From an uncultured Candidatus Obscuribacterales bacterium (GTDB taxonomy: Bacteria; Cyanobacteriota; Vampirovibrionia; Obscuribacterales; Obscuribacteraceae): a stretch of 35,808 nt of DNA. Shown here in pieces: positions 2,783 to 33,208 of this stretch. A model generated the notes under the pieces. That model was not told the origin of the DNA and did no database searches. It was given only the letters and a program-made list of their open reading frames with translations. The translations under genes were made by a program, and so were the position numbers. The stretch is taken from the NCBI GenBank assembly GCA_964531315.1, contig CAZHEZ010000061.1, positions 1 through 35,808 of the forward strand. Direction: 5' to 3'. Each line of letters opens with the position of its first letter. Position 1 is the first letter of the stretch.

Positions 2783-3002
2783 TGTAAAGCGAATCCGGCA
2801 TGCGTCTTTGGGGTTGGGTGGAAAGCATATTAGACAATTGCAGCTGAACTAATTCTGAACATTCGATCCAAACTGGAGCCGAGTGGCGCTTAACAATCGC
2901 TGCCATCTTCACGCTCGATTCACATGCTCGCTAATAAGCTGCGGTGAAATCAGGCGTCCTTTTAGACTTTTACTTCTGCGCTCTCCTCAATAACTATCTC
3001 TC

Positions 3003-3087
3003 GGTCATTGCGATGACTGATATGCCAAGCCGATCTCCTTGAGCAAACGCTCAGGCAGAGCGGCTTGTTTTGGTATCGTATATGGTG
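3003..3087 (+). promoter_or_regulatory. Conserved non-coding module, copy 1 (inverted repeat, long hairpin, 16-nt box)
   Basis: Inverted repeat gGTCATtgcgATGACtg (3003-3019); hairpin gccgatctccttgagc-aaac-gctcaggcagagcggc (3029-3064); box ggtatcgtatatggtg (3072-3087). The same architecture is at 10831-10913 and the same box is at 30701-30716. Confidence 0.5.
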
Positions 3088-3407
3088 TCACAGCTAGCGC
3101 ATGTGCATGAGCCGCGCCAGGTCAGAAAGGCGCGTGTATTCACGCGAAGGTTCTAGTGTTTTTGTTCTGTAACTATTAAAGCTCTTGATTCTTAAGCCAC
3201 GAAGAGGCGACTGTAAGAGTATCTTCCGAAACTTTCTTCTCAGCTTTCACAGCCAACTCCAAAAACTCCTTCTCTTCAACCAGCCGAAGTATTTTTCTTA
3301 GCAGCTCGCTGCTGCGGAGTTTGTTGGGTCGGAAGAATTTCAGCGGGCGGTGGATGCCCTCATAAGCGGGTAGCTCCGCCATCGAACTAACTTTCAAACC
3401 GAAAAGG

Positions 3408-3590
3408 ATGACTCAAATGAGAATCAGAGCTTCAACCACCGCACTTCTTCTTCTCTTTGCCGGCATTATTGGTGCCGTGCAATCGTATCGCATCGATCAC
3501 AACGGTATTCTCCACAGTGTTGTCGGTCTCTTGATCATCGCACTGGCTGTCTTTGTCGTTACCCGCGCCTTTCGTCGACGCCCTACCTGA
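3408..3590 (+). CDS. Small two-helix membrane protein (60 aa), hypothetical
   Basis: ORF with SD aaggatg upstream; two hydrophobic helices (TTALLLLFAGIIGAV, VVGLLIIALAVFVV); sits directly upstream of X1. Confidence 0.4.
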   Translation: MTQMRIRASTTALLLLFAGIIGAVQSYRIDHNGILHSVVGLLIIALAVFVVTRAFRRRPT

Positions 3591-6239: not shown

Positions 6240-6636
6240 TCGAACTTCGAAACTATAGTGACCGCTAGAGTCGCTGCTGGGAAATAGTTCCAGCCGGTTA
6301 AGTGATGGCATTCAGGAGAGGGATGGTTTTGCAAGTCGTCCTTCTCCTGTTTGCCGTTATTTTCAAAGTAGTTTCCTTCAACTGTAAACATTGAAAATTC
6401 GAGTGGGGTGACATTCGCAAATATTTGTCGGTCCCGATTTTTTTTGATCTCAGTATTACTATACAATATAAAAGGCTGAGCATAAGTGGATGATTTGCGA
6501 GGCTGTGTGCCGTTTTTGGAAACCCATAGGCTAAAAGTGATGGTGGCGATTTCTCTCACGTATCTCTCACGTTTCAGTTCGTATTGTCATTGAGTGGCCG
6601 TTCTGCGGCGCATCTAGGCAGTCAAACAATACAACT

Positions 6637-6676
6637 AAAGCGCGGCATTCAGAAGCAATTCTGAATACCGCGCTTT
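6637..6676. terminator. Strong bidirectional intrinsic terminator (18-bp stem, GCAA tetraloop)
   Basis: aaagcgcggcattcagaa-gcaa-ttctgaataccgcgcttt is a near-perfect palindrome with one mismatch. It is flanked by A's upstream and by TTTGTGTGTG downstream. Confidence 0.6.
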
Positions 6677-7106
6677 GTGTGTGCCACCGCAGGTAGTGGC
6701 ATTGCTTAGCGCGGTTTGCGCATGCAGATATAGCTGTGCGATAGCAACGAAAGCAATTCTCGTGCCGATTTGCCTCTGAACGCTTTTTTCTCCGCCATCG
6801 ATTTGCGATAGTTCCCTTGTTATTTCAACCACCAATGCCAGTTAGATATCTCCCGCCCTTTCCAATCGCCACCTATTATCTCGGCATCTAAGCAACGACT
6901 TTTTGTCGAGCCTCGCTGACCCTGCTGTTTTTCGGCATCACTGAGATGTCTGCAAAGCAGTCGAGGGGATGAAGGAGAGCTTAGTTTGAGGCACAGTTTC
7001 CTTGACGGGAGACTGTTTTGTCGATGGAAGAATTGTCGGTTTCCATCGAGAGAGCGCTTCAACCTGCCTTCCTGCTTACTGGGAAGGCGCAACAGAAAGC
7101 ATCACA

Positions 7107-8333: not shown

Positions 8334-9254
8334 CTAGCTGCGGGCGTAGTTGACGTACCCGCAGCGATTGAAGAACCGCAGTCCAAGCTTCGAACAGGCG
8401 TGATAGGAATCGTCTTTCATTCTGGCCATGTCGAGGCAGGTATTCTGCAACAAGATAGCCATCTCCTTCATCTTGCTGCCGAATTTCTGGCTCGGATTGT
8501 CTCGCCACTTCTTCAGTTGAGCGCGGGCGCGGTAAAAGGCCCCTTCATTGTCGATGATGCGCTGCCAAAATCCCTCCGGCAGCGGTGCGTCTTGCAGCTC
8601 CCTGCGCATGGGGGCGATATATTCAAGGGCGCGCTCGACTTTGAGAATCAGCTCGCTTAGAACATATTGACGAGCCTGATAGGCGGTTTGCGGCAGTGCG
8701 AAGTCCCCGAGCATCCCTCGGAACGACTGCAGCATGGCTTCGTTTTCGGCGATGAATCGATTCAGGCGTCCTTCCACCTTCGCTTTGTGTGCAGGTCGAT
8801 AGACACCGCCGAGTCCGGCAGCAATCCTTTTGTTCTGTATGAGCACGCTCTCAAGAGCCCTGATAGACGAGAGCAGCTGAGTTGCTTCGAAGCTGCCTGT
8901 TTGCATGTTGTTTACGATTGTCCAGGTTTCCTCGTCGAGCACAGCATCATGTCGGGCGACGCCTGCCAGCGCGGCAATGACATTGCAGGTCTGTTCGGCT
9001 TGCAGCTTCATTTCATCCAGGAAGCCGTAGAACTGGTTGGCTCCGTACCAGACGGCGACAATAGCCTTAACTTCCGGCTGGTCGCCGATGAAGTCTCCGC
9101 CTACCGTCGTGAACTTCCTGTCGAGAAGTAATCCTAATGAATCATGCGGCTGACTTGCCGCGGTTTTGCTGAAGGCAACGGTGTGCTCGAAACGATTGAT
9201 GTCGCGCAGCCATTTATACGGCTGCAAATCGATACTTTGCGGATCAATGCTCAT
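8334..9254 (-). CDS. Hypothetical protein (306 aa)
   Basis: Long minus-strand ORF with SD ggaga 7 nt before the ATG at 9254. The plus-strand ORFs 8214-8660 and 8667-9131 are read as shadows. No recognised domain. Confidence 0.55.
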   Translation of the reverse strand: MSIDPQSIDLQPYKWLRDINRFEHTVAFSKTAASQPHDSLGLLLDRKFTTVGGDFIGDQPEVKAIVAVWYGANQFYGFLDEMKLQAEQTCNVIAALAGVARHDAVLDEETWTIVNNMQTGSFEATQLLSSIRALESVLIQNKRIAAGLGGVYRPAHKAKVEGRLNRFIAENEAMLQSFRGMLGDFALPQTAYQARQYVLSELILKVERALEYIAPMRRELQDAPLPEGFWQRIIDNEGAFYRARAQLKKWRDNPSQKFGSKMKEMAILLQNTCLDMARMKDDSYHACSKLGLRFFNRCGYVNYARS

Positions 9255-9407
9255 AGATGTTCTCCAAGCTGTTTGAGATCTAGAGGTGCATAGGCATCCA
9301 AAGTCAGCCAGTGGTCTGCATTGCGGGCCACTGGCTGACTTTGAATAAAACCAAAGGGCGAGCCCCGAGCCGTAGCCCAGCGCTCGCCCTCACTTCATTG
9401 GTTTCGA

Positions 9408-10142
9408 TTATTTACTTGCGAGCAGTCCCTTCCTCTTCTTTTCGGAAAGGAGTGTCTCGACTTCCTGATTGCCGAAGAGAGTGTCGTAACCCGCTCCGGG
9501 GCATTCAATCGCCCACTGGTACAGGGCCGCCATGCGAACAGGGTCGCTGACGAGCGGCTTTTCCTGGCGCACGGCGTCGAGATTCTCGACGATTGCCGCG
9601 GCCATTTTCTTGTAGAGCTTCTCGATGGTCTTGCCCAGTTGTCCGGGAGTCTTGGCTCCCTGATACTCAGCCATACCATGGAGTTTCACCACCTTCGTGC
9701 GCGGCCAGTTTGTCGCCATCAGGTTCCAGGGGTCCTGTTCCTGATTGCCTTCGCCGGCGGCGCGGAAGTCGGTGCGAAGAATGACGCTGGGGACGTCGAT
9801 CATTTTCGCGTAGATGAATTCGACCACCGTACCGGCGTCGAGATTCGATCCATCGAAATTGAAGATTGCCAGGTCGCAGGTCATCACGTGCTTGAGGTCG
9901 ACGTTGCGAATGTCGACCGTGCGATGCACCGGTTCTTCGAGGTCCTGCGGGAGGACGCATTGATAGCGCCCGCGAGAGACCGACTTGATGTACTTGGCCA
10001 GAAGGGCGTTGCCGATCAGATCTTTGTGCGTCCAGAGGTCGCCCGCGAGATAAATCGTGTAAGGACGTTTACCACGCGAACGGTTTTTGCGGTGGATGTC
10101 GGCAGTGCTGGAGGTCTTGTTAGCTTTGAAAAGCTTGGTCAT
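9408..10142 (-). CDS. Nucleoside 2-deoxyribosyltransferase-like (Rcl/DNPH1-like) family protein
   Basis: Motifs YTIYLAGDLW and CDLAIFNFDGSNLDAGTVVEFIYAKMIDVPSVILRTDFR match the YxAGP…D.GT.FE.GYA..GKP pattern of the family. SD aaaggtg precedes the ATG at 10142; the ORF track begins further upstream at 10190. Confidence 0.55.
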   Translation of the reverse strand: MTKLFKANKTSSTADIHRKNRSRGKRPYTIYLAGDLWTHKDLIGNALLAKYIKSVSRGRYQCVLPQDLEEPVHRTVDIRNVDLKHVMTCDLAIFNFDGSNLDAGTVVEFIYAKMIDVPSVILRTDFRAAGEGNQEQDPWNLMATNWPRTKVVKLHGMAEYQGAKTPGQLGKTIEKLYKKMAAAIVENLDAVRQEKPLVSDPVRMAALYQWAIECPGAGYDTLFGNQEVETLLSEKKRKGLLASK

Positions 10143-10830
10143 TGGGACACCTTTTGCGGTTTGCGCAGGAGTCCTCGAGTGGCCAAACAAGACCTGAAAT
10201 TGCCGAAGCTTCTGAATCAGTCCGATTGATGTTTTTCAGAGCTGTCATTGCAAATAGCCTTTTTTGGCGGCAGGATCATCCTGTGCCCTTATGCTATTTG
10301 CGCCAGGTATCCGTCATCGAGCAGGTCTTGTGCCTGGTCGTGCAGTCCTGACTCAACCAACAGTTCGCCGCGCCTGCTTCACACCCGGGCCGTCGAAGTC
10401 CTCCACCATAAGTGGTGAAAAGAATGCTTCGATGACGAGGTCAGGATGAGAAGACGAGGATTGTTCCAGAGAAACTACAGGGTGAAAAGTTGATACTTGA
10501 AATTACCAATTTCTCATCCTTAAGTCCACTGAAATCGGCTTCTACAGATAAATTTCCAATATTAAAATTCGCACAGCTGCGCCACCATATGCGGTGGCGG
10601 AAACACGAAAAGCCCGATACGCATGTATCGAGCGAAAGATAATATGAGGTCGAGAAGATGTTTTGTGTATGCACAGGATAGAGTCCAGTTTATGAACTTA
10701 TCGTGAACGCTGCGACATTTACGAAAATAGCTTTCACTCTGGATTCACACGTTGGAGGCTAAACTGCCTTAACTCATCAGCCATTCACAGCTCTTGAGCA
10801 TCTGCGACTTCTCTCAAACAATTATTCGTC

Positions 10831-10913
10831 AGTCACTGAGGTGACTGCTATATAAAGCCGATCTCCTTGAGCGAAAGCTCAGGCAGATCGGCTTTGTGGT
10901 ATTGTATATGGTG
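10831..10913 (+). promoter_or_regulatory. Conserved non-coding module, copy 2 (inverted repeat, TATA-like, GAAA-capped hairpin, 16-nt box)
   Basis: Perfect palindrome caGTCACtgagGTGACtg (10831-10848); ctatataaa; perfect hairpin gccgatctccttgagc-gaaa-gctcaggcagatcggc (10857-10892); box ggtattgtatatggtg (10898-10913), followed by the GCGCGGCCGCGC palindrome. Confidence 0.5.
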
Positions 10914-11200
10914 GCAAAGTTGGCGCGGCCGCGCGAATGCTTGGCGCGCTGAAATCGCCTATTAAAGAGGCTCTTTCATTAGACCGCGCGCTAACCGTAC
11001 TAAGTCGAATTGCAAGATCAAGTAATGTGTAAAATCCATGTCTATTGACTGAGAGTACGGCAAAATGGCACCGTTTAAATATCTTTCGTCTTCTCCATTC
11101 AAATCGCGCAATCTCTCTCTAAAGCATTCTTCTCTCTCGATTAGAGGCAGTAATCACAGCACTTCGGTGCTGCGCGCGACCCCGGATGAGGCGAAATCCA

Positions 11201-11485
11201 AGCCCAGCCATGAAGGAGCTGCACATGACCCCCGCCACCTATGCTGCAAACTTCTCGAAGGTTTGTGATACGGCATCTAAGTTTTTGTCTGATGAGCATC
11301 GCAAACATGTGATCGATCGCGCCGGCTTTTCCCTGACCTTCTTTCAGTCCGGAGCCAGCACGAGCGATGCAGCCTTGCGTACGGTTTGTATCGAAGCGGC
11401 ATATCGCGAACTGCGTGCTGCTGCTAAGGAGCTCAACTACTATGGCAACTTCGTCGTCACCGGCTGGATTCCCGTAACGTTTTAG
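11201..11485 (+). CDS. Small hypothetical protein, family Z (paralog of 16698-16970)
   Basis: SD aaggag lies 7 nt before the ATG at 11201; the ORF track starts at 11186. Shared with Z2: TPATYAANFSKVCDTA / PKLQAYTDAVTKISDAA, FFQS/FYQA, AAYRELRAAAKEL/AAVRELTAAAKYL. Confidence 0.55.
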   Translation, partial: SPAMKELHMTPATYAANFSKVCDTASKFLSDEHRKHVIDRAGFSLTFFQSGASTSDAALRTVCIEAAYRELRAAAKELNYYGNFVVTGWIPVTF

Positions 11486-13654: not shown

Positions 13655-13752
13655 TGTCATTGTTTTCGAATGCGGAGCGATTCGCATTCCAGTCAGGCAA
13701 TATGTTTTAAGATCCCATCAAGGCGATGGATCGCAACTGAGGAGCAAAGAGC

Positions 13753-13923
13753 ATGGGTGTCAACGTTGTCCAGCTGCTTTTGGATTTCGTCCGGCTTTTG
13801 GCGGACTGCTGCAATCCCAACGGCAAGCTGCACCGCAAGTACGGCGGCAAATCGCGTCGTCCTCATCGTCCGCACCGTCCTCACGGACATCACCGGCCGC
13901 GCCGGCGTCGCCGCTTTCCTTAA
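13753..13923 (+). CDS. Small ORF (56 aa) with a His/Arg/Pro-rich C-terminal tail …RRPHRPHRPHGHHRPRRRRRFP*
   Basis: ATG at 13753 with SD gaggag upstream. The tail and the stop codon are encoded by a repeat that is also found at 14118-14155. Below the cut-off of the ORF track. Confidence 0.3.
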   Translation: MGVNVVQLLLDFVRLLADCCNPNGKLHRKYGGKSRRPHRPHRPHGHHRPRRRRRFP

Positions 13924-13960
13924 GCGGCGGCGTCAATTACGTACTGAAAGGAAAAGACTC

Positions 13961-14152
13961 ATGACCAAGAAAGAAAAGAAGCCAAAACATCTCGTCTTTG
14001 CCAATCAAGAACCTTGTCGGGCTGTTCTGGGTACTGTCGGTATGCTGGTTGCACTTGAAGCGATAAAGTCAGCTTCGCCAGCACCAACTGATTCGCCGCA
14101 AGAGGTAGCACATCGTCCGCACCGGCCGCGCCGGCGCCGCCGCTTGCCATAA
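13961..14152 (+). CDS. Small ORF (63 aa) with a His/Arg/Pro-rich C-terminal tail …HRPHRPRRRRRLP*
   Basis: ATG at 13961 with SD aaaggaaaag upstream. Ends with the same tail repeat as 13753-13923. Same frame and stop as the 160-aa track ORF 13670-14152, which has no SD. Confidence 0.4.
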   Translation: MTKKEKKPKHLVFANQEPCRAVLGTVGMLVALEAIKSASPAPTDSPQEVAHRPHRPRRRRRLP

Positions 14153-14203
14153 GCGGCGGCATCAATGCAGGAAGAAAATGAACCAGGCGAAAGGAAACAC
14201 TAG

Positions 14204-18830: not shown

Positions 18831-19286
18831 CTACGTTTGCACCATGACTGTGCGGTTTTCGATTGCTCGAATCAGCGCCAGTCTGAAGTCGGCCAGGACG
18901 CCGTCAGTGGCAGCCTTTTCATTGCGCCGATAGCCATTGGTGGAAACTTGGTCGCGATACCTGTGCTGCTCCAGCACGTGAAGCTGAAGCTTCTGGTCTT
19001 CGCAATAAAGTCCCATCCATACGGCTACCGCCGATGCAGAGCAGCGCTCCATGCGCAGCGCCGCGGCCAGATTCAGATCTGAGAGCTCCGTGTTGCAGCA
19101 GTTTGCCGAGGATTGCGCCACGTTGAATTGCCGCATGAATGCGATCTTGCAGATCGCCTCGAGCCTCTCAAGATCTTCTTCCATGATTGCCGTGCAGATG
19201 GAGAGAAGAAGTCCATCTGTGATGTTGGAACTCAGCCACCACCAGGCCTGCTTGGTTGCGTGGTCCGCGTTGATAAAAGGTTTCAT
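18831..19286 (-). CDS. Hypothetical ~150-aa protein, family P, copy 1 of 3 in tandem
   Basis: N-terminus MKPFINADHATKQAWWWLSSNITDGLLLSICTAIMEEDLERLEAICKIAF aligns with P2 and P3. Confidence 0.55.
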   Translation of the reverse strand: MKPFINADHATKQAWWWLSSNITDGLLLSICTAIMEEDLERLEAICKIAFMRQFNVAQSSANCCNTELSDLNLAAALRMERCSASAVAVWMGLYCEDQKLQLHVLEQHRYRDQVSTNGYRRNEKAATDGVLADFRLALIRAIENRTVMVQT

Positions 19287-19397
19287 CGTTTGCTTTCAAA
19301 CGGTGTGTGGGCATCAGCCCACACGTGTTCGGCGCCCTCCGGATTGAGAACACCGTTGAAACATTTGGTGCGGTGCTCCTTGTGGTGCTGTTGTCGC

Positions 19398-19853
19398 TTA
19401 GCCCTCACTCAGCCGTGCTTCCACAGCCTGAATCAGAGCCTGACCGATAGTGTCGAGCGTGAAGGCAGCCAGCTGTTGCTCCTGCCTGACCTGACCCGTG
19501 AAGACGACAAAGCCTTTGTCGAAGTCCTTCATCACGTAGAGGATGGTCTTGCGCTCGTCGCAAATCAGGACGAATCCTGAGCGGTTTCTGTTGCCTCCGC
19601 GGCTGTGGGCATAGCCCATCCGCAGAGCCTCACTCAATTTCAGGGAAGCGAGTTCCCTGTTGCAGCCGAGTGATTGCACTTCGCTTTTGGCGTAGTCGCC
19701 GGCGAAATGCTGCGTGCAAACTGCTTCCAGTGCCGGCTCATTTCTTTCGAGAATGGCTTGGCAAATGGTGAGCAGAAGGCCGGGTTGTATGTTGGACTGC
19801 AACCACTGCAGAACGCGAGTGGTTTGTTCGTCCATGGTGTTTAGCGGTTTCAT
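19398..19853 (-). CDS. Hypothetical ~150-aa protein, family P, copy 2 of 3
   Basis: MKPLNTMDEQTTRVLQWLQSNIQPGLLLTICQAILERNEPALEAVCTQHF. SD agagagg 6 nt upstream. C-terminal TIGQALIQAVEARL resembles the P3 segment TIRQALIAAVEAKL. Confidence 0.6.
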   Translation of the reverse strand: MKPLNTMDEQTTRVLQWLQSNIQPGLLLTICQAILERNEPALEAVCTQHFAGDYAKSEVQSLGCNRELASLKLSEALRMGYAHSRGGNRNRSGFVLICDERKTILYVMKDFDKGFVVFTGQVRQEQQLAAFTLDTIGQALIQAVEARLSEG

Positions 19854-19995
19854 ATTGGCCTCTCTGGCAAGCCCTCCGAGCTTGCATTCTTCGTTTCAGA
19901 TCACCCCCTGAAAGTGGATTTCCGCTTCCAGTTGCAGGGGGCGTGCGATTTTGTGGTGTTTGCCCTGGCAGGCAAAACACTGGGCGCCGTCAAAC

Positions 19996-20448
19996 TCAGC
20001 AGCGGCTGAGCTTGGCTTCGACGGCGGCGATCAGCGCCTGCCTGATGGTGGACAGGACTGCCTCGGGCTGCACAGGAGCACCATGCAGAATGCCGTGGGT
20101 GAAGTCGAATCCTTCGCCCTTGCCTTTCAGGTTGAGCCGGGTCTTGGGAGATTCGCACATCAGTCCCATCGCCGAACTCTCGACGCTGCCGACCGACATT
20201 GAGCGAAAACCGACTTGCAACGCGGACACCAAGCCGAGGGCGCGGAGCGCCTGATTGCAGGCGATTGCCGAAACTTCGCCGACGCCGTAACGCCGCGCGA
20301 AATTGATCTTGGAGATGGTTTCCAGCGTCTCGAGATCTTCTTCCAGAACAGCCAGACAGATACTTAGGAGCAAACCGTCCTTGATATTGCCGCGCAGCCA
20401 CCACCATATTTTCATGATGGCGTCGTCATCGTCATTGAGCTGTTTCAT
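19996..20448 (-). CDS. Hypothetical ~150-aa protein, family P, copy 3 of 3 (start set at the internal Met with an SD)
   Basis: The track ORF extends to 20619. The Met at 20448 (MKQLNDDDDAIMKIWWWLRGNIKDGLLLSICLAVLEEDLETLETISKINF) is preceded by aagaggaaaa and aligns with the P1 and P2 starts. Confidence 0.55.
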   Translation of the reverse strand: MKQLNDDDDAIMKIWWWLRGNIKDGLLLSICLAVLEEDLETLETISKINFARRYGVGEVSAIACNQALRALGLVSALQVGFRSMSVGSVESSAMGLMCESPKTRLNLKGKGEGFDFTHGILHGAPVQPEAVLSTIRQALIAAVEAKLSRC

Positions 20449-20483: not shown

Positions 20484-21458
20484 TCAGATCATCCCCAGAG
20501 AGCGGATTTGCGCTTCCACGTCCTTGGGAAGGGTGAAGAAGCGGCGCTTGCCCTGGCACGGAATTGGCTTGGACAGGCGGCGCGGGTTGGCGAATTTGAA
20601 TCCGACCGGCCCTTCCCACCAGGGTGAGTTGGACTCGGTGACGCAGTCGACGATGTCGACCAGACCGATGATGGCTCCCATAGGCAGCTTGTCTTCAGCC
20701 GGAATGCGCACGCCGAAGTGCCCGCGGCTCTGGAGAACCTTGCGGATATAGGCCTTGGAGCGCTGGTAGACGCCTTCGGGCTGTTCGTCGGCGGCGTGGA
20801 TGGCGATGGTGCCGCGGACCCGGGCGGGCCACTGGCGGTTTTCCATGTCCTTGCCGACGTTGAAGACGGTCCAGGCCCAGGGCTGACGCAAGGTCAGCCC
20901 CTTGAGACCGGCTTTGGGATCGTGGCGGTTCTCTCTCACCAGGCGCTCCGCTTCGATGATGAATTCCGGCATTTTTGCCGGCAGGTCTTCGAGCGCGCAG
21001 GTGAGAATCGCACCCATGCCGGCCAGTTCACTCAGGCATTTGCCACCGCGGCTGGTGCCGATGCAGACGACGCCGCGAGCGGTAAGTTCGCGCAAGATTT
21101 CGGAGGGGCGATCGCGTCCCTGGAAATCCAGTGAGCGATTGGCCGGTCCGTCTCCGCCGAAGCCGGGCACATTGGCAAACAGGCTGGGCGACTGGTCCTG
21201 GGTCATGTCGTGCGACTGGTCGATGATGGCGATATCGATGTCCGCAAGATCGAATTTCTGGCCGGGAGGCCAATCTTCGATCTTCTTCGGGTCCACCACT
21301 TCCAGATAGACGAAGTCCTTCTCCAGCCCTCTGTAGAGGTCGAAGGCGGTGCCCTGAGTCCAGGTCAGTCCCTTCAACTGCTTTTTGAGAGCGGTGAATG
21401 TGCGCAGGTTCTCCTCACGGTGAACCTTGCGCGCAGACAGTATCAGCAGAACTCTCAT
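20484..21458 (-). CDS. ASCH-domain protein with an N-terminal ~190-aa domain of unknown function
   Basis: C-terminal ASCH-like pattern LRQPWAWTVFNVGKDMENRQWPARVRGTIAIHAA…PMGAIIGLVDIVDCV…PWWEGPVGFKFANPRRLSKPIPCQGKRRFFTLP. SD ggagga 6 nt before the ATG at 21458; the track ORF begins at 21605. Confidence 0.6.
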   Translation of the reverse strand: MRVLLILSARKVHREENLRTFTALKKQLKGLTWTQGTAFDLYRGLEKDFVYLEVVDPKKIEDWPPGQKFDLADIDIAIIDQSHDMTQDQSPSLFANVPGFGGDGPANRSLDFQGRDRPSEILRELTARGVVCIGTSRGGKCLSELAGMGAILTCALEDLPAKMPEFIIEAERLVRENRHDPKAGLKGLTLRQPWAWTVFNVGKDMENRQWPARVRGTIAIHAADEQPEGVYQRSKAYIRKVLQSRGHFGVRIPAEDKLPMGAIIGLVDIVDCVTESNSPWWEGPVGFKFANPRRLSKPIPCQGKRRFFTLPKDVEAQIRSLGMI

Positions 21459-24986: not shown

Positions 24987-25056
24987 CTGTGTCTCCTTCT
25001 GTACTTAAATGCGCTGGCCGGTGGTGAACCGAAAAGCGACAGAGTTTGAGAGAGGA

Positions 25057-25326
25057 CTACTGAACGGCGTTGCGGCGCGCGTATTTGCGCACACCGGAGC
25101 CGAGGGTAATCACGCCTGTGAGCACGACGAGCCAGCTCAAGGGCGTGTAGAGGGGAAGGCTTTCGTTGCCGGCCGGAGAGGCGATCAAGAAAGCGCCGAA
25201 GAAGAGCCACGCGAGACCACCGATGATGCGACCGGCGCCACGAATTCCTTCGTTTTTGGCGAACAGGGTGAGCGCATTGGCGAACGCGAGCAGCACCGCA
25301 ATCACGAACAAGCTAGTTGCGAGCAT
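25057..25326 (-). CDS. Small membrane protein (~89 aa), hypothetical
   Basis: SD aaggaga directly upstream of the Met at 25326 (MLATSLFVIAVLLAFANAL…); three hydrophobic helices. The track ORF extends to 25425. Confidence 0.5.
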   Translation of the reverse strand: MLATSLFVIAVLLAFANALTLFAKNEGIRGAGRIIGGLAWLFFGAFLIASPAGNESLPLYTPLSWLVVLTGVITLGSGVRKYARRNAVQ

Positions 25327-26248
25327 GTATGTTTCTCCTTTGGGACCAATGAGAGAAACGCAGACCTTTGCGGTGAGCGCCTCTTCATCAGTCGTGAAAA
25401 ACTGAAAACGCGAATCTGCGAACACACGGTGTTTAGACCGCAGGTTCCAATTGATTCGCAGTGATAAGACGGGACGCGAACTGTTGTGATCAGGCTCCAG
25501 ACAAACCGGACCGGGTCAACTCAACCGAATAAATTCGGTGTCTCTTACTCAAGAGAAAGCAAGAAAGTTAGAGTTGAAACGGGGTCCTTAGTGATTTGGG
25601 AGCAAATGAGATACAAGTCGAACCTACGCGACGCGCCTGTTTATCACCAAAGAATGTCAAGAAGTTTGAAAGACGAGAAATGATACTGAAATGCATACCA
25701 GGCCCATGATTCAAGGGATTTTCATGCGCAGGTGAAACAGATCTTTTCTAGTGATAGCTAAAACCAGGCTTTGAGCTAGCGAAGGAAACCTAGACTGCAA
25801 GCGGATTTAACCGATCTCAGGATTGTGCTTGACATCTGTTTCCAAGGACTGAATTAGCACCAGCAAATATTGTCGATTACTCTGGTTTCAAGCCAGTGCA
25901 AAAGTCCGAAAACCGGCTCGTGATTGCAGTCTTCGCGCGCTTGCGCGAGCTTGTGCTAGGGCGGCAGAAATGCAAACTGACATGGGTTCGCAAACAGTGA
26001 CATTGATTATGAGTCAAAAAACCTCACGTGAGTGTTGTTCGAGCCTCATCAAGACTGTTAAACCAAATTATCCATTTCCTTTCACACACTTCCGTTCTTT
26101 CAAGTCAGGTCCCAGCGCTCACTCAACTTCCATTGTTTGAACACCGCCTAAAAGGTGGTGAGCTGAACGCCGCTTGTTGAAACCAAAGTGTCTTCGGAAA
26201 TGTCATCTCAACTCTCCTGTCTAAATCTGAATTTAAGGAGGCAGACTC

Positions 26249-27622
26249 ATGATCAGCTTGATCTTGATTGGCGCCTTCATCGTCTTCACGATTGGCTTAA
26301 TCGCCAAATACGTGCTCGACAAGAAGGAGCATGAACTGAGAATCACGTGGCAAGAATTCGGGATTGCCGCTGCCGTTCTCATGATTATCGTGATTCCACT
26401 GACCGCCTGGGTCGGACTCAAAGTCGCCTTCAACAACACGGTGACTTACAACGAGTTCTGGAGCGGCTACGAAGTGGAAGCACAATGGTTGAAAATCCAG
26501 ACGTCACGCGACGGAGCAGGCGCCCACAAATGGGACTGCGACCCGTATGACGAGTGGGTTGTAGACCAAGAAGCGTACACCGACGACAAGGGCAATTACC
26601 ACGCCGAGCAGGGTCACTACGAGACTCGCTATCACAGCTGTCCGTACACGACTGAGGAGTGGACTTTCGTCGTCAAGACGACCCTGGGCGATTACTACAT
26701 CGCCGAAAACAACCTGCCCACAGACCCGGAGCAATACCGTTACTACAGTCCGGAAGGCCACTCCCATGGAGCACCTGCCAGCCTGGATCGCGGTGTGCCT
26801 CTGTTTTGGCAGCGCGTCAAAGAGCGCATCGACAGCAATCAGCCCGGTCCGGTCACAGCCAGAAAGCCTTACGACAACTACATTCTGGCTTCCGATCAGA
26901 CCATTCTGAAGAAGTACAGTGCCGACATCGACCGGTACAAGAAAGAGGGCCTTTTCCCGAAGCCCAACGCCACCGTCAGCGATGTCTATTTCGCTGACCG
27001 CGTGTACTTCGTCGGCGTTCAACCGCCGGGTGAATGGCAGAAGTCCGCCAACGCCTTCGATGCAGCACTCGGCATGGAGTTGACCGGAGACCTGCACCTG
27101 ATCATCGTCGACGCCAATAAAGTCAGTGACCCGGAGAATTACTCCGCGGCGCTTTTCGCTTACTGGCAGTCGCCGGAATTCGGCAAAGACGCCATCTCCA
27201 AGAACAGCATCATGGTCATCCTTGCTACCAAAGACGGCAAAACCGTTCAATGGGCACGAGCGGCGACCGGCATGCCTAGGGGCAACGAGCGTCTTCTCAT
27301 CGACATCCGCGATCAGCTGCCGGGCACGGCACTCGATCCTGTCTCCGTTCTCGGCACGCCCAGAGGCGAGCTGTACAACAACGGCGGCAAGACCTTTGTG
27401 CGCGTTGTGCACTCGCAGGGCAAGCTCGAGTCGATTATCTGGGGACCGGATAAATTCGAGCGTGTGCACATGAAGGACTACAGCTACCTGATCCACGAAA
27501 TCGAGCCCACAACCGGGCAGAAGGCGTGGATTATCTTCTTCATCACACTGTTGGGCTGCGTGGCCTGGGGCATTTGCATTGCCTACGGACCGCCTACCTA
27601 CAGGCGTTTCAGCGGTCGTTAA
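26249..27622 (+). CDS. Two-TM protein with a Cys-containing N-terminal domain and a TPM-like C-terminal domain (A1), paired with LemA
   Basis: SD aaggagg upstream. N-terminal TM (ISLILIGAFIVFTIGLIAKYVL) and C-terminal TM (AWIIFFITLLGCVAWGICIAY). Conserved Cys motifs WDCDPY and RYHSCPYTTEEWTF. TPM-like segment GDLHLIIVDANKVSDPENYSAALFAYWQSPEFGKDAISKNSIMVILATKDGKTVQWARAATGMPRGNE. Strong paralog of 28439-29824. Confidence 0.65.
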   Translation: MISLILIGAFIVFTIGLIAKYVLDKKEHELRITWQEFGIAAAVLMIIVIPLTAWVGLKVAFNNTVTYNEFWSGYEVEAQWLKIQTSRDGAGAHKWDCDPYDEWVVDQEAYTDDKGNYHAEQGHYETRYHSCPYTTEEWTFVVKTTLGDYYIAENNLPTDPEQYRYYSPEGHSHGAPASLDRGVPLFWQRVKERIDSNQPGPVTARKPYDNYILASDQTILKKYSADIDRYKKEGLFPKPNATVSDVYFADRVYFVGVQPPGEWQKSANAFDAALGMELTGDLHLIIVDANKVSDPENYSAALFAYWQSPEFGKDAISKNSIMVILATKDGKTVQWARAATGMPRGNERLLIDIRDQLPGTALDPVSVLGTPRGELYNNGGKTFVRVVHSQGKLESIIWGPDKFERVHMKDYSYLIHEIEPTTGQKAWIIFFITLLGCVAWGICIAYGPPTYRRFSGR

Positions 27623-27642
27623 TCGCTGGTAAGGAAAATTCC

Positions 27643-28311
27643 ATGAACTCTGACAAGATTCTCGAACTCCTCAAAAAGCCTGGTGTAATCATCGGCTTGA
27701 TCGTCGCTGCCGTTCTTCTGTTCGGCACTATCTCCGTGATCGGCACTTATACCAGCGTGCGCAACGAAGGTCGCACGCAAGAGTTGTCCATGAACGCGCA
27801 GTGGAAAAACACCCAGACGCGCTACGGGCAATTCCGCATGGGCATGGCCGACAAGCTGGCGATCGCGCGCGAAAAGCGTGACGCCATCAACAAGATCCTG
27901 GTCGATGCCGTCTCCGGACGCTACGACAAGCAGGGTCAACCCGGCACCGTCAATCAGGATGCGGTCTTCTCGGCTATCAAAGAAGCCTATCCCGACTTGA
28001 AGGGGCTCAACATCTTCGACCAGCTAATCGTCGACATCCAGGCGGGGCGTGAAGCCTTCGCCAAGGACCAGGAGACTATGGCTGACATGGTGCGCTCCTA
28101 CAACTCCTGGCGCGAGACGGGCAGCTTCCTGCACCCGACTTTCGTCAAGTGGGCTGGCTTCCCATCGGATGTCCTGGAAGCGCGCGTGGGCGACAAGGTC
28201 TATCACGGGCAAGCGGCTCTCGACAAAATGAACACCGTGATCGTGGGTCAGGGCACAAGCGAGATCTTCGACACCGGCAACGACAAACCTCTGGTCGTTC
28301 CCGGCAAGTAA
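27643..28311 (+). CDS. LemA-family protein (B1)
   Basis: SD aaggaaa upstream of the ATG at 27643. N-terminal TM. LemA-like blocks TYTSVRNEGRTQELSMNAQWKNTQTRYGQ, EAYPDLKGLNIFDQL and YNSWRETGSFLHPTFVKWAGFPSD (cf. the LemA consensus YNsLV..EN…aWsqVenqYQRR…eqYPdLKan…YN..v..yN..i..FP…fGf). Confidence 0.65.
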   Translation: MNSDKILELLKKPGVIIGLIVAAVLLFGTISVIGTYTSVRNEGRTQELSMNAQWKNTQTRYGQFRMGMADKLAIAREKRDAINKILVDAVSGRYDKQGQPGTVNQDAVFSAIKEAYPDLKGLNIFDQLIVDIQAGREAFAKDQETMADMVRSYNSWRETGSFLHPTFVKWAGFPSDVLEARVGDKVYHGQAALDKMNTVIVGQGTSEIFDTGNDKPLVVPGK

Positions 28312-28438: not shown

Positions 28439-29824
28439 ATGATGAACATGATCATTGTGGGTGCTCTGATTGTCTTTGCGATTGGACTTGTTACCAAGTT
28501 CATCCTGGACAAGAAGGAGTCTCCATACAGAATCACTCTTGCCGAATTTGCGATTGCCGGAGCAGTGCTCCTGGCTCTCGTAATTCCTGGCACTACCTGG
28601 CTCGGATACAAGATGGCCTATGAAAACGCCGTCACGTACGAAGAGTTTTGGAACGGTCAGGAAGTAAAGGCCACGTGGGATAAGATTCAGTGCGACAGGG
28701 ACGGAGCTGCTGCCCATACCTTCCGCTGCGATCCCTACAAGGTGCTGGTCACGTACGATTGCTCGTATTACACCGGCTCAGGCAAGAATCGTCACCGTGT
28801 CTCCAAAACGTGCACACGTTGGGAGACGCGCTATCACAGCTGCCCTTACGTCACCGAGGAATGGACCTTCAAGGTCTACACAACGCTCGGCGAGTACACG
28901 ATTGCAGCCAACAATTTCCCGGACCATCCGGAGAATTACCGGTATACCAGTCCGAAAGGATACTCGCAGCCGGCTCCCTCTGATGTTCCGCGCGGCGTTC
29001 CCCAGTTCTGGCAGGACGCCAAAAACCGGCTGGACGCCAATAAGCCGGGGCCTGTAGCTGTGCGCAAGGAGTACGACAATCTCATCCTTGCCTCTCAGCA
29101 CACGATTCTGAAGAAGTACAGTCAGGACATCGAGCGCTACAAGAAAGACAACCTCTTTCCCAAGATTGCCTCGAGCGTTCACGATTTCTACCTGGCTGAC
29201 CGGGTCTACTTCGTTGGTGTGACGCCTGACCCCCGCTGGCAGTGGCACATCAATTACTTCAATGGCGCCCTTGGCTATGAATTGCAGGGCGACCTGCACG
29301 TGGTCATTATCGATGCCGACAAGGTAAACGACCCGGACAATTACGCGGCGGCCCTTTCCGCGTACTGGCAATCGCCCGAGATGGAGAAGAATGCGCTGTC
29401 GAAAAACGCCATTCTCGTCGTCCTGGGCGTCAAGGGCGAAACAGTCAGTTGGGCTCGGGCGACGACCGGCATGCCGCGTGGAAACGAGGCCATGCTGATA
29501 GAAATCCGCGACCAACTCAAAGGCGCTCCCTACGACCCCAGGTCCATCCTCGGGGTGCCGCATGGAGAACTGACTTCAGTCAACGGCGAGACAAAAGTGC
29601 ACATCGTGCATGGACCCGATCAGGGCGCTCTGGAAAGCATCATCTTTGGTGCCGACAAATTCCAGCGTGTGCATATGACGGACTACCAGTACCTGGCGCA
29701 CGAAATCGAGCCGACCGACGGGCAGAAGGGGTGGATCTACTTCTTCATCATCCTGTTCGGCATCATCGCCTGGGGCATCTGCGTCTACGTCGGACCCCAA
29801 ACCTATCACCGTGTTCGCCGGTAA
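28439..29824 (+). CDS. Two-TM Cys-containing TPM-like protein (A2), tandem paralog of A1
   Basis: Colinear with A1 over the full length, roughly 60-65% identical by eye. Same Cys motifs (FRCDPY, RYHSCPYVTEEWTF) and TPM-like segment GDLHVVIIDADKVNDPDNYAAALSAYWQSPEMEKNALSKNAILVVLGVKGETVSWARATTGMPRGNE. N- and C-terminal TM helices. Confidence 0.65.
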   Translation: MMNMIIVGALIVFAIGLVTKFILDKKESPYRITLAEFAIAGAVLLALVIPGTTWLGYKMAYENAVTYEEFWNGQEVKATWDKIQCDRDGAAAHTFRCDPYKVLVTYDCSYYTGSGKNRHRVSKTCTRWETRYHSCPYVTEEWTFKVYTTLGEYTIAANNFPDHPENYRYTSPKGYSQPAPSDVPRGVPQFWQDAKNRLDANKPGPVAVRKEYDNLILASQHTILKKYSQDIERYKKDNLFPKIASSVHDFYLADRVYFVGVTPDPRWQWHINYFNGALGYELQGDLHVVIIDADKVNDPDNYAAALSAYWQSPEMEKNALSKNAILVVLGVKGETVSWARATTGMPRGNEAMLIEIRDQLKGAPYDPRSILGVPHGELTSVNGETKVHIVHGPDQGALESIIFGADKFQRVHMTDYQYLAHEIEPTDGQKGWIYFFIILFGIIAWGICVYVGPQTYHRVRR

Positions 29825-29859
29825 ATCCGGCCACAAATTTCCGTAAGGAGAAAAAAGTC

Positions 29860-30486
29860 ATGAAGAAATTCATCGTAATCGGCGTCATCGCCGCGCTCGT
29901 GCTGGGAATCTTCTCGGTCATCAGCACGTACACATCGATCCGCAACGAGGGCACCCGCACGGAGCTCTCCATCACTGCCAAGTACAAGGCGATGCAGGCC
30001 AGCTACGGCCAGGACCGCCTCGCTTTCACCGACCAGCTGGGCATTTCCCGCGACAAGCGTGACGCCATGGACAAGATCCTGACGGACGCCGTCAGCGGTC
30101 GCTACAACAAGGCGGGCTCACCCCAGGTCGACAACGGCAAGCTCTTCTCGGCCATCACCGAGGCTTATCCCGACCTCTCCGGTCTGAACATCTATGACAA
30201 GATCATGGACTTCGTCACCAAGATGCGCAGCAAGTTTGCGCAGGACCAGGCCCAGGTCGCCGAGATGATCAAGGACTACAACACCTGGCGCGAGACGGGC
30301 AGCTTCCTGCACCCGACTCTGGTCAAGTGGGCTGGCTTCCCCTCGGATGCACTCGAGGTGCAGGCCAACGGCAACGTCTACCGCGGTCAGGCTGCGCTCG
30401 ACAAGATGTCGCGCCCGATCGTCGGCTCCGACACCGGTCAGATCTTCGACACGGGTGTGGACCAGCCGGCCATCCCTGGCAAGTAA
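29860..30486 (+). CDS. LemA-family protein (B2), paralog of B1
   Basis: SD aaggag upstream of the ATG at 29860. Blocks TYTSIRNEGTRTELSITAKYKAMQASYGQ, EAYPDLSGLNIYDKI and YNTWRETGSFLHPTLVKWAGFPSD. Confidence 0.65.
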   Translation: MKKFIVIGVIAALVLGIFSVISTYTSIRNEGTRTELSITAKYKAMQASYGQDRLAFTDQLGISRDKRDAMDKILTDAVSGRYNKAGSPQVDNGKLFSAITEAYPDLSGLNIYDKIMDFVTKMRSKFAQDQAQVAEMIKDYNTWRETGSFLHPTLVKWAGFPSDALEVQANGNVYRGQAALDKMSRPIVGSDTGQIFDTGVDQPAIPGK

Positions 30487-30507: not shown

Positions 30508-30575
30508 CTGCAAGGAGGGGCAACCCTCCTTGCAGACTGTGGCGGCAAAAGCGCCCTGCGTTTTTGCTCTTTTCC
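30508..30575 (+). terminator. Intrinsic terminator after the duplicated A/B module
   Basis: Perfect 12-bp stem ctgcaaggaggg-gcaa-ccctccttgcag (GNRA loop), then ggcg-gcaaaa-gcgcc and cctgcgTTTTTgctcTTTTcc. Confidence 0.6.
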
Positions 30576-30700
30576 ACTTTTCTATTAGTCAATATAGTGA
30601 AAAATTTAACGTTGAAGCAACGCTTGATTGGTAATAGTGTCGCAAACAGCTTCAGGCAGTCCAGGCAGGTCAACATTGTTGGCTTTCCTGTATTTGGCTT

Positions 30701-30716
30701 GGTATTGTATATGGTA
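30701..30716 (+). promoter_or_regulatory. Conserved 16-nt box, copy 3 (ggtattgtatatggta), upstream of the 30972 gene
   Basis: Matches the boxes at 3072-3087 and 10898-10913 in 14 or 15 of 16 positions. Followed by the GC hairpin gcgcatatagcgc. Preceded by a degenerate form of the upstream hairpin sequence (…gcttcaggcag…). Confidence 0.45.
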
Positions 30717-30971
30717 TCAGACTTAGCGCATATAGCGCCTGCGAATTTTTAGCAAAATATACTAAATTCAAGCATCTTCAGTTAGATAACGTTGCTTTGC
30801 CAGTCCGATAAAAGACAGGTTGATTGTGCAATTTCAATCTATCTTCGTGTGGGGAAAAACCGACCAGATCCTCCAACCTCCTTCTTCTGGGCATTTTTGC
30901 ATTCAGCATGAGCTGAATTGCGTGCCCACCAACCCAACCCTTCTGTGCTCCCAGCGTGAAAGGAAATTCCC

Positions 30972-31253: not shown

Positions 31254-31392
31254 ACTTAAAGTGTGCTGCGGCTAAACATCAAGAGCATGTCGGCTGTCGA
31301 TGATTTGCAGTCCCGGCGCCAAATATAGGCGCTGGGACTGGCTGAGGAGAATAAATTTGGGCAGGTTTCTTCTATTTTTTTGCCTGAATGTT

Positions 31393-31572
31393 GCTATGAA
31401 ACTTTTGCAAGGTTCATAGCCAAAACGCAATCCGCAAGGTCCTTGCAGCGTCAGAGTTTTGGGCGATTTTGCTGATTTTCGCGTTGGATAAGGCTAGTTT
31501 CGCCACCGTAAACACTGGCTTTGCGGGTTCATAAAAGCGCGATCAGCTATGAAATTCCAAAAGTTTCATAGC
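31393..31572. promoter_or_regulatory. Pair of 28-bp near-identical palindromes (candidate operator sites) in a ~820-bp gene-free region upstream of the LOG-family gene
   Basis: GCTATGAAACttttgcaagGTTCATAGC (31393-31420) and GCTATGAAATtccaaaagTTTCATAGC (31546-31572). A consensus TTGACA hexamer at about 31756-31761 lies between them and the gene. Confidence 0.45.
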
Positions 31573-32076
31573 AATTCCTCATTGGTGTTTTGACAATACC
31601 GGCCTTTGTTTGAAATTGATGATTTCGGCTCTGTTTAGCTCAGACCGGCTGCTTCCAACCAAAGCCTGGTTCACGTGAGCGCGCATGAACTTTCAACACA
31701 GCTTGAGCAAATCAAAAAACCGCCAACCACTCAAAATGCGCCTTTTATATATCCACTTGACAAGTTCGCGCAGCTTGGCCAAGCTGGTCTTTCCAGATTT
31801 TAGGTAGATCTGTATCTTCCTCCTCGACCTTTCGCTAGGTTGAGATATCTACATTCTTTCTTTTGATCATCAGGTATTAACTCCAGGCTCATAACTCACA
31901 TTCCAGTTCCGCAGGAACACCGGCCACACGCGCCGAGAGAATGAGTACGGGTCTGGAGCTAATGCTTGGTCATCGGCAGAAAGAATTGGCAATTGAAACT
32001 GATCCAGAGGCGGCCGATTGGCTTGCTGTTTGGTGTTTTGCAGTTTCCAGAAAAGCAGCCTGACTGCTGCATAACA

Positions 32077-32880: not shown

Positions 32881-33208
32881 CAGGGCGGTATTCGTGAATC
32901 GCCATGATCGACACAAGCAGCTCAACACGCGAGCCGAGCGTCATTGTCCCTGTCCGGGGCAATGGGGCTTGAGCTGGCGGGAGGGGCTGAAAACAAAGGA
33001 AAACGACGCTGTCATTGGTTTAACACCCTGATGACGGCGCCGTTTTTCTTATTTTCGGTTCTACGAGGAAATATAGTAATACAGCGATAAAAAGAAGAAG
33101 GTTGGGCCAAAGACCGCTTGTAAGCGGCTTCAACCCAACCTCCTCCTCACTCAATGAGCCGCTCGATTAGTAGGTGCCAGGCGAACCCGACATCATCCAA
33201 TCAAACGC

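Follow-up and report, generated by a model that had tools for sequence, protein, structure and literature searches.

A repeated hairpin-and-box module in intergenic regions of an Obscuribacterales contig

What does a short non-coding element do that recurs ahead of largely unrelated genes? The element considered here lies in a stretch of 35,808 nucleotides (nt), hereafter the window, from contig CAZHEZ010000061.1 of an uncultured Candidatus Obscuribacterales bacterium. Obscuribacterales and Vampirovibrionia are a non-photosynthetic sister lineage of Cyanobacteria, and how genes are regulated in Obscuribacterales and other uncultured relatives of Cyanobacteria has hardly been studied. The element, called the module below, consists of one or two stem-loops, a T-rich tract, an invariant box of 16-17 nt with a semi-conserved extension, and a small GC hairpin. 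It is a real, selected and lineage-restricted non-coding element; its general kind (leader, attenuator, promoter or small RNA, sRNA) is known, and it belongs to no described family. Four full copies are known from two genomes, three of them (copies 1 to 3) in the window and one in an Obscuribacterales metagenome-assembled genome (MAG). Which of these kinds the module belongs to is the question followed here, and a transcribed leader is the answer that is tentatively preferred.

Anatomy of the module and selection on its stems

The 16-nt box GGTATYGTATATGGTG occurs at three sites, 3072-3087, 10898-10913 and 30701-30716, all on the plus strand and the third with one mismatch, against a chance expectation of 0.07; three matches were reached in 0 of 100 shuffles. 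The 36-nt hairpin pattern that accompanies it has only two matches in the window, 3029-3064 and 10857-10892, for an expectation of 0.00, so that the original prediction of three boxes and a long hairpin at these positions was borne out. Apart from one Y the box is constant among the copies. The core common to all of them comes to 30-33 nt, namely TGGTATYGTATATGGTR followed by NCANANNTNGCGC, or the box plus RNCANANNTNGCGC, and this core is the only stretch that copy 3 shares with the other copies. Stretches of 7.8 and 19.8 kb with genes on both strands separate the copies, the spacing from hairpin to box ranges from 2 to 14 nt, and all full copies are intergenic and aimed at the next same-strand genes. 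In the window, the distance from the end of the box to the next plus-strand gene is ~330, 312 and 256 nt for copies 1, 2 and 3.

Copies 1 and 2 are the most alike. Local alignment yields 126 nt of homology at ~80% identity (2975-3100 versus 10801-10926), so the module first described as ~85 nt long is real, but longer than thought. A weaker similarity lies further upstream, where the patch CTTCACGCTCGATTCACATG (2907-2926, found by global and local alignment) matches TTTCACTCTGGATTCACACG (10732-10751) with a TTCAC-N6-TTCAC repeat of 11-nt period, at a score reached by 1 of 500 shuffles. In copy 1, the conserved 5' flank (2975-3001) carries a -10-like AACTAT (2992-2997), a putative promoter element, 4 nt before hairpin 1 (3002-3019), which has a 7-bp stem, a TGCG loop and a folding energy of -7.0 on the plus strand versus -3.4 on the minus strand. 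Hairpin 2 (3027-3070, including the T-tract GTTT) forms 18 pairs around an AAAC loop and resembles an intrinsic terminator, and it is followed by the 17-nt box TGGTATCGTATATGGTG with its extension TCACAGCTAGCGC (3071-3100). Copy 2 repeats this order with a 5' flank at 10801-10829 carrying AATTAT (10820-10825), a hairpin 1 of seven perfect pairs and TGAG loop (10830-10847), a hairpin 2 at 10855-10896 with the short tail TG, and, at 10897-10934, the box TGGTATTGTATATGGTG, the extension GCAAAGTTGGCGC and the GC mini-hairpin GCGCGGCCGCGC (10923-10934).

The inverted repeat GTCAy-N4-rTGAC reported earlier is present in both copies, as GTCAT-TGCG-ATGAC in copy 1 and GTCAC-TGAG-GTGAC in copy 2, and its stems extend to the 7 bp of hairpin 1. 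Hairpin 2 of copy 2 does have the GNRA cap ascribed to it (GAAA), but it is not perfect, as it contains one C.C mismatch and one G.U pair; copy 1 has an A.G mismatch in addition to these two. Copy 3 has a weaker hairpin with an inner stem at 30667-30685, a T-rich tail and CAGGCAG as the remnant of hairpin 2 (30661-30690), followed at 30699-30750 by the box TGGTATTGTATATGGTA, the extension TCAGACTTAGCGC, a GC mini-hairpin and TGCGAATTTTTA.

The substitutions that separate copies 1 and 2 are distributed unevenly over this anatomy: 4 of 50 paired sites differ and 7 of 15 unpaired sites do (Fisher p=0.0018). Of the four differences in stems, three maintain the pairing or make it better (C-G to T-A, A-T to G.T, and A.G to A-T), and hairpin 1 contains the compensatory C-G to T-A change as well as the A-T to G.T change. 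The operons that follow the two copies share two paralogous gene pairs, of 235/269 and 164/172 amino acids (aa), which are 26% (BLASTP alignment) or 27% (codon alignment) identical in the first case and 44% identical in the second, while their third codon positions are saturated at 27-34% identity. All six module hairpins that were compared between strands (both hairpins of copy 1 and of copy 2, plus those of copy 3 and of the MAG copy) were more stable on the box strand, and the terminator-like stem-loops in copies 1 and 2 and in the MAG copy have folding energies of -22 to -29 kcal/mol. Because of the bias against changes at paired sites, the saturation of the paralogues and the folding bias towards the box strand, the stems of the module are under selection, most simply as an RNA made from the box strand.

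The 3' half of the box, the 8-mer ATATGGTR, has six occurrences in the window where 0.43 would be expected, and a seventh in the 9.5 kb by which a JGI contig of the same strain extends the window to the left. The occurrence at 20402-20409 is coding sequence (IWWW). A site left of the window, at position 5168 of L132, was not counted as a member, as the ATG of the motif opens a called open reading frame (ORF) of 40 aa with its own GAGG ribosome-binding site.

Partial copies, a homologue and the surroundings

A partial copy, c2', lies on the minus strand at 10561-10644 and was identified from a terminator-like site and motif matches, the terminator scan having found its hairpin independently. 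Reading along the minus strand, it consists of a -10-like TATTAT (10644-10639), a hairpin (10633-10612) with TTTTCGTGTTTCC, the box-like GCCACCGCATATGGTG (10598-10583), which together with the preceding C (10599) matches 12 of 17 positions of the 17-nt box, and a CGCA/TGCG mini-hairpin with AATTTTAAT. Copy 3 and c2' have TGCGAATTTT in common, and TGCGAATTTTTA, the last element of copy 3, is also found in c2'. This partial copy faces the minus-strand gene 10142-9408 at a distance of 441 nt, and copy 2 and c2' point outward from a 190-nt centre that bears -10-like hexamers. A more degenerate copy, c0, was found on the plus strand at 189-290, in a convergent intergenic region, with a strong hairpin (189-222), a long T-rich tract, TATTATTGAATATAGTG (matching 13 of 17 positions) and ATATGGTG (281-288); taken by itself its box match, with four mismatches, is no better than chance expectation. 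The c0 hairpin is not more stable on the box strand, and c2' was outside the set used for that comparison.

Beyond the window, a collection of genomes was scanned with the bare 16-mer, which returned at least 120 loci. These matches are mostly noise, many of them being coding sequence for the peptide GIVYG, and five among the 120 listed come from Obscuribacterales or Melainabacteria MAGs. Among the matches listed there is one clear homologue, in an Obscuribacterales MAG (L092, the same as L127-L130; the copy itself lies on L127). The MAG copy reads GGGAGAAGATCGAGAC-ACAA-GTCTCGATCTTCTCC-TTTTGTG-TGGTATTGTATATGGTG-CCAAAGGTGGCGT and has the same order of elements as the window copies: hairpin, T-run, box, extension and small GC hairpin. 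Its hairpin pairs perfectly over at least 15 bp (RNAfold pairs 16-17) and is unrelated in sequence to the hairpins in the window; with hairpins unrelated between the genomes, alignment by MAFFT fails and no covariance model was obtained. The copy lies 153 nt past a 90-aa gene and 572 nt ahead of a rhomboid and RseP operon, and the leader ahead of the rhomboid gene is conserved in a relative with a rhomboid protein of 82% identity. An intergenic match on L045 is plausibly related to the module. The box matches on L070 and L102 (Melainabacteria) fall within long antisense ORFs and that on L007 abuts the stop codon of a convergent gene, and none of these was taken as a member.

Other searches added little. 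The window recurs near-identically in JGI, ENA and Logan assemblies, with one mismatch each in two of five contigs, and these contigs therefore carry no comparative information. A metagenome scan with box plus extension returned matches from the window's own strain only, viral scans gave no module-like match, BLAST of the module against phages and plasmids gave nothing relevant, and text searches, one on the box sequence and others on sigma factors of these taxa, gave nothing. Rfam had been suggested as a possible source of a match, and none was obtained: in the window, Rfam 15 has no hit at gathering score, and of seven weak matches at E values up to 10 none overlaps a module, while the MAG copy has only chance-level matches to unrelated families over its hairpin (best E 0.17). 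No transfer RNA was found in the window. The protein families of the window are nearly orphan, and homologue searches gave no orthologous loci beyond L126-L131; the histidine kinases of the window and of L127 are 33% identical.

The 17-mer form of the box also occurs in a multi-copy non-coding repeat of Bacteroidales MAGs (L009, L010, L037, L052, L068, L086, L115, L119 and L120). This repeat is ~330 nt long where its upstream boundary is visible (L068, L009), ends in GCTACTGAGCC and contains the 20-mer TTTGGTATCGTATATGGTG; it is often found at contig ends, in either orientation and beside unrelated genes. Rfam gave no credible match to it, only three below threshold (best E 0.014), none of which covers the region of the 17-mer. 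The shared 17-mer is best treated as a coincidence, because its flanks are unrelated and the repeat occurs in either orientation next to unrelated genes.

The copies were first described as lying upstream of plus-strand genes for small proteins, which holds loosely: these genes are unrelated orphans, and at copy 1 a called minus-strand ORF of 68 aa (3176-3382) sits between the box and the plus-strand gene at 3417, 34 nt from that divergent start. The ORF has no Pfam family and one match (E=8e-4) among 1.8 billion representatives, and it may be either spurious or a genuine orphan. Copy 2 and the opposite-strand c2' share the gene-free region 10143-11224, which is one of three unusually long intergenic regions of 0.86-1.26 kb; the others are 6240-7100 and 24987-26248, the latter holding one small called gene at ~25057-25326. 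Copy 3 comes directly after the second unit of a tandem duplication (26249-28311 and 28439-30486), each unit of which encodes a membrane protein of 457 or 461 aa and a partner of ~210-220 aa without an assigned family; identity is 62% between the large proteins and 73-77% between the DNA repeats.

The window contains further repeats. A 25-nt AT-rich sequence, TTTTTTTGATCTCAGTATTACTATA, occurs at 6439-6463 and, inverted and 84% identical, at 33072-33096, in two distant intergenic regions, and includes GTATTACTATA, which loosely resembles the box centre GTATTGTATA. A 25-nt inverted repeat at 9296-9346 (ATCCAAAGTCAGCCAGTGGTCTGCA / TGCGGGCCACTGGCTGACTTTGAAT, 88% complementary, 1-nt spacer) lies between the minus-strand genes 8334-9254 and 9408-10142. 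Two 47-nt GC-rich direct repeats, 13891-13937 and 14120-14166, are 91% identical and 229 nt apart, each with a CGCCGCTT..AAGCGGCG palindrome, and are located around the end of the ORF 13670-14152, just ahead of the 269-aa gene. Three tandem paralogous genes of ~150 aa without a Pfam family occupy 18831-20448 on the minus strand, an 80-nt direct repeat is found at 19896-19975 and 20484-20563, and a 20-nt inverted repeat (31391-31410 / 31555-31574, 95% complementary, 144 nt apart) lies in an 823-nt gene-free region upstream of a LOG-family gene.

A proposed transcribed leader and its alternatives

The reading preferred here, tentatively, is that the module is the conserved transcribed front end, or promoter-proximal leader, of a few lineage-specific transcription units. 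A weak sigma-70-type -10 element, 4-7 nt before the first hairpin, would start plus-strand transcription at the hairpin base. The nascent RNA would then form one or two stable stem-loops with a U-rich tract behind them, which may act as a 5' stabiliser and/or as a promoter-proximal intrinsic terminator (an attenuator). Polymerases that read through would transcribe the box as UGGUAUYGUAUAUGGUR, then the semi-conserved 13 nt and the small GC hairpin, and finally a leader of 190-570 nt before the genes are reached. The invariant box could be the common recognition site of one trans-acting partner, either protein or RNA, that decides on continued expression. Anatomy, repetition, stem selection, folding bias and recurrence in a second genome are observed; the start site, the termination and the partner itself, whatever its nature, are all putative.

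Several observations point this way. A -10-like hexamer precedes the first hairpin in copy 1 (AACTAT), copy 2 (AATTAT), c2' (TATTAT) and the MAG copy (GACAAT), and the last of these has TTGCCA 18 nt upstream as a candidate -35 element and is the only promoter that the scan returned from that 860-nt region. Sigma-70-like promoters were predicted at 7852-7881 of L127, where the start would fall at the base of the hairpin, and in the window at 30571-30598, 60 nt before the hairpin of copy 3. The layout of an intrinsic terminator, a GC stem-loop and a T/U-rich tract, is found in the module, and the scan flags copy 1 (by its inner stems), copy 3 and c2', while the tail of copy 2 is weak (TTTGTGG). 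An upstream same-strand gene that such a hairpin might terminate is present at copy 3, the MAG copy and c0. Copies 1, 2 and c2' lie in divergent regions and have none, so their strong U-tract hairpins, biased to the box strand, fit a leader, as does the outward-facing arrangement of copy 2 and c2' around their common centre. A structured 5' leader or sRNA, one of several options in the original prediction, has thus become the best-supported one, resting on the hairpin-preserving substitutions, the strand bias in folding, the upstream hexamers and the hairpins in divergent regions.

Other observations weigh against a leader. The -10-like hexamers are weak (3-5 of 6 positions), and promoters at the level of the scan were returned at two loci only, near chance frequency. 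With a strong hairpin and U-tract right behind the start, most transcripts would end prematurely, and the analysis found no structure that could serve as antiterminator. The box is not consistently predicted to be unpaired, the mean pairing probability of the core being 0.41-0.76 and not below that of its flanks, and since -10-like hexamers also lie inside the box it could itself be the promoter. Furthermore, there are four full copies only, from two genomes, the downstream genes are unrelated orphans without an evident common function (except for the two paralogous pairs of operons 1 and 2), and a called convergent ORF separates the box of copy 1 from its plus-strand gene.

The foremost alternative, only slightly less probable than the leader, places the start of transcription at the box. 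The box would be a core promoter without a -35 element, recognised through an extended -10 (TGGTATYGT) or through TATGGT in ATATGGTG, perhaps by an alternative sigma factor or with an activator. On this view the hairpin and T-tract would insulate the promoter as a terminator, and the transcript would begin with the extension and the GC mini-hairpin, a 5' stabiliser at about +5. This accounts for the co-orientation, as every full copy is intergenic and points at the next same-strand genes. TGGTATYGT fits TGnTAnnnT and TATGGT fits TAnnnT, the hairpins of copy 3 and of the MAG copy have an upstream same-strand gene to terminate, the palindrome and the TTCAC direct repeats with 11-nt period in copies 1 and 2 resemble operator or activator sites, and the decayed c0 sits where no downstream gene needs a promoter. 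However, the promoter scan found no -35 and no promoter at the box: no canonical sigma-70 pair (-35/-10, 16-18 nt apart) occurs at any box, with candidates lying upstream of the hairpins instead. The earlier statement that the box does not fit a sigma-70 arrangement stands. TGGTATYGT is present in all full copies, but that half of the box is missing from the partial copies, which keep ATATGGTG and not the extended -10 half. The supposedly insulating terminators of copies 1, 2 and c2' have nothing upstream to terminate, in copy 3 and c2' a hairpin and T-run come no more than 35 nt after the presumed start, leaders would be unusually long everywhere (190-570 nt), and 17 invariant bases exceed what a -10 element needs. 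Leader and promoter both fit most of the facts and differ only in where transcription starts; the leader is preferred.

A bolder proposal, which I consider rather unlikely, is that box and hairpins constitute a previously undescribed regulatory RNA system of Obscuribacterales and Vampirovibrionia, made up of sibling sRNAs of the Yfr1 or Qrr kind or of an attenuator with a lineage-specific factor that recognises the box, and co-ordinating a set of operons, some orphan and some for envelope proteases, like the rhomboid and RseP operon that follows the MAG copy. A short element that is kept invariant across paralogous loci and two genomes while the neighbouring protein genes diverged is a handle on a regulatory circuit, and the module offers a testable link among uncharacterised orphan operons. 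If it is only a lineage-specific promoter-leader cassette it would be ordinary biology and would still mark the starts of transcription units for the annotation of MAGs. Interest in the module is moderate, and would be higher if the box were the handle of a regulon in an almost unstudied lineage.

Taken alone, the idea that the copies are independent sibling sRNA genes is still less probable. Their shared core would pair in trans with target mRNAs, as in Yfr1/Yfr2 or Vibrio Qrr1-5, and it is indeed identical in paralogous copies and in the second genome while the flanking hairpins diverge. Hairpins lie on both sides of the core, the 3' mini-hairpin of copy 3 and of c2' is followed by a U-run, the MAG has terminator-like sites 130-200 nt downstream, the gaps between module and next genes are long, and c0 and the L007 match are not aimed at any gene. 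Against this, the full copies all share the orientation of the genes that follow them (4 of 4, which falls short of significance), transcription would stop at the internal hairpin and U-tract, ahead of the core, and the core is not predicted to be accessible by its pairing probability. Its best complementarity to translation-start regions in the window, -22.1 kcal/mol, does not stand out from that of shuffled cores, with a mean of -20.2 (standard deviation 1.7). Promoter and terminator for such an RNA are weakly predicted, and the weak Rfam matches include neither Yfr1 nor Yfr2.

A tiny ORF at the box, encoding a leader peptide or micropeptide, is very unlikely. It could be read in an ATG frame (MVSQLAH.., MVAKLAR.., MVSDLAH.., MVPKVAW..) or in a TTG/GTG frame (WYCIW(C/W/Y)Q..). 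Over the first 15 nt past the box the variable positions have a three-base periodicity, with one position in three never changing (p ~0.02 in a single phase, 0.06 when corrected for three), and several differences are synonymous in either frame. Yet that both frames fit about equally argues for chance, and only four or five sequences enter the comparison. No Shine-Dalgarno sequence precedes the ATG or the TTG/GTG, while real neighbouring genes carry AAGGAG-type sites; the peptides, of 8-25 aa, diverge past 6-7 residues; and the Tyr and Ile codons of the box show no synonymous change. A separate plus-strand small ORF across hairpin 1 (NNYxSV...) was rejected because copy 2 has no start codon in frame.

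The least probable of all is an element acting at the DNA level, whether a mobile repeat such as a miniature inverted-repeat transposable element (MITE), an attC-like recombination site or a sigma-54-type promoter (TGGYAY-N5-ATGG, GG-N10-GG): direct repeats of ~126 nt, a hairpin beside a conserved sequence as recognised by single-strand DNA enzymes, a box length and GG spacing that fit -24/-12 geometry and go with palindromic sites and direct repeats that lie 55-160 nt upstream in copies 1 and 2, and the same 17-mer in the unrelated Bacteroidales repeat speak for it, but the copies have neither terminal inverted repeats nor target duplications in common (the search gave internal hairpins and unshared short pairs), and there are only two long copies at 80% identity plus one short copy in ~45 kb, a hairpin that differs between genomes at a spacing of 2 to 14 nt from the box, no recognisable transposase, integrase, relaxase or reverse transcriptase in the window, no conserved GTTRRRY as in attC (copy 2 has GTTGGCG, copy 1 none), and, for sigma-54, a -12 element that is GG in every copy, canonical sites that are not enriched and partial copies that lose the -24 GG. 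The MITE-like element of the original prediction finds no support on these grounds, the copies being few and diverged and the hairpin entirely different in the second genome. An oriT-like site for an HUH enzyme, considered for the hairpin beside a conserved sequence and for a partial likeness to a nick-site sequence, was likewise rejected, given the variable spacing, a hairpin not conserved between genomes and the lack of a recognisable relaxase in the window.

Comparison with known systems

Set beside sigma-54 promoters, the box has a comparable block of 16-17 nt with GG and G spaced as at -24/-13, and, in copies 1 and 2, palindromic sites and direct repeats at 55-160 nt upstream; it differs in having GG instead of GC at -12 and TGGTAT in place of TGGCAC. 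Canonical sigma-54 sites are not enriched in the window (22 observed versus 22.1 expected), and neither rpoN nor an enhancer-binding protein was seen in the ~75 kb available, of which ~45 kb are from the source genome. Cyanobacteria are not known to have sigma-54. Like extended -10 promoters (TGnTATAAT), the box has TG at -15/-14, T at -12, A at -11 and T at -7 and lacks a -35; however, its 17 contiguous invariant and 13 semi-conserved bases go far beyond what such a promoter needs, and the half of the box conserved in the partial copies, ATATGGTG, is the other one.

Bacterial 5'-leader attenuators share with the module a stem-loop and U-rich tract soon after a putative start, a long leader, and compensatory or conservative changes in the stems. 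The module differs from them in that no antiterminator fold, ligand-binding domain or leader peptide with a ribosome-binding site was identified, and its most conserved part comes after the terminator and not before it. The ops/JUMPStart element of RfaH is also a rare, orientation-specific invariant motif in long leaders of accessory or envelope-type operons, although the box bears no relation to GGCGGTAGnnTG and comes after a terminator-like hairpin, and no NusG paralogue was identified; this comparison is speculative. Compared with Yfr1/Yfr2 and Qrr1-5, the core of the module is unrelated in sequence and not predicted to be unpaired, a terminator-like hairpin precedes it, and the copies are co-oriented with downstream genes. 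The likeness lies in an ultraconserved linear core between stem-loops, in paralogous copies with divergent flanks and in conservation across related genera, and, for Yfr1/Yfr2, in that the only homologue of the module among the matches listed belongs to the sister lineage of Cyanobacteria.

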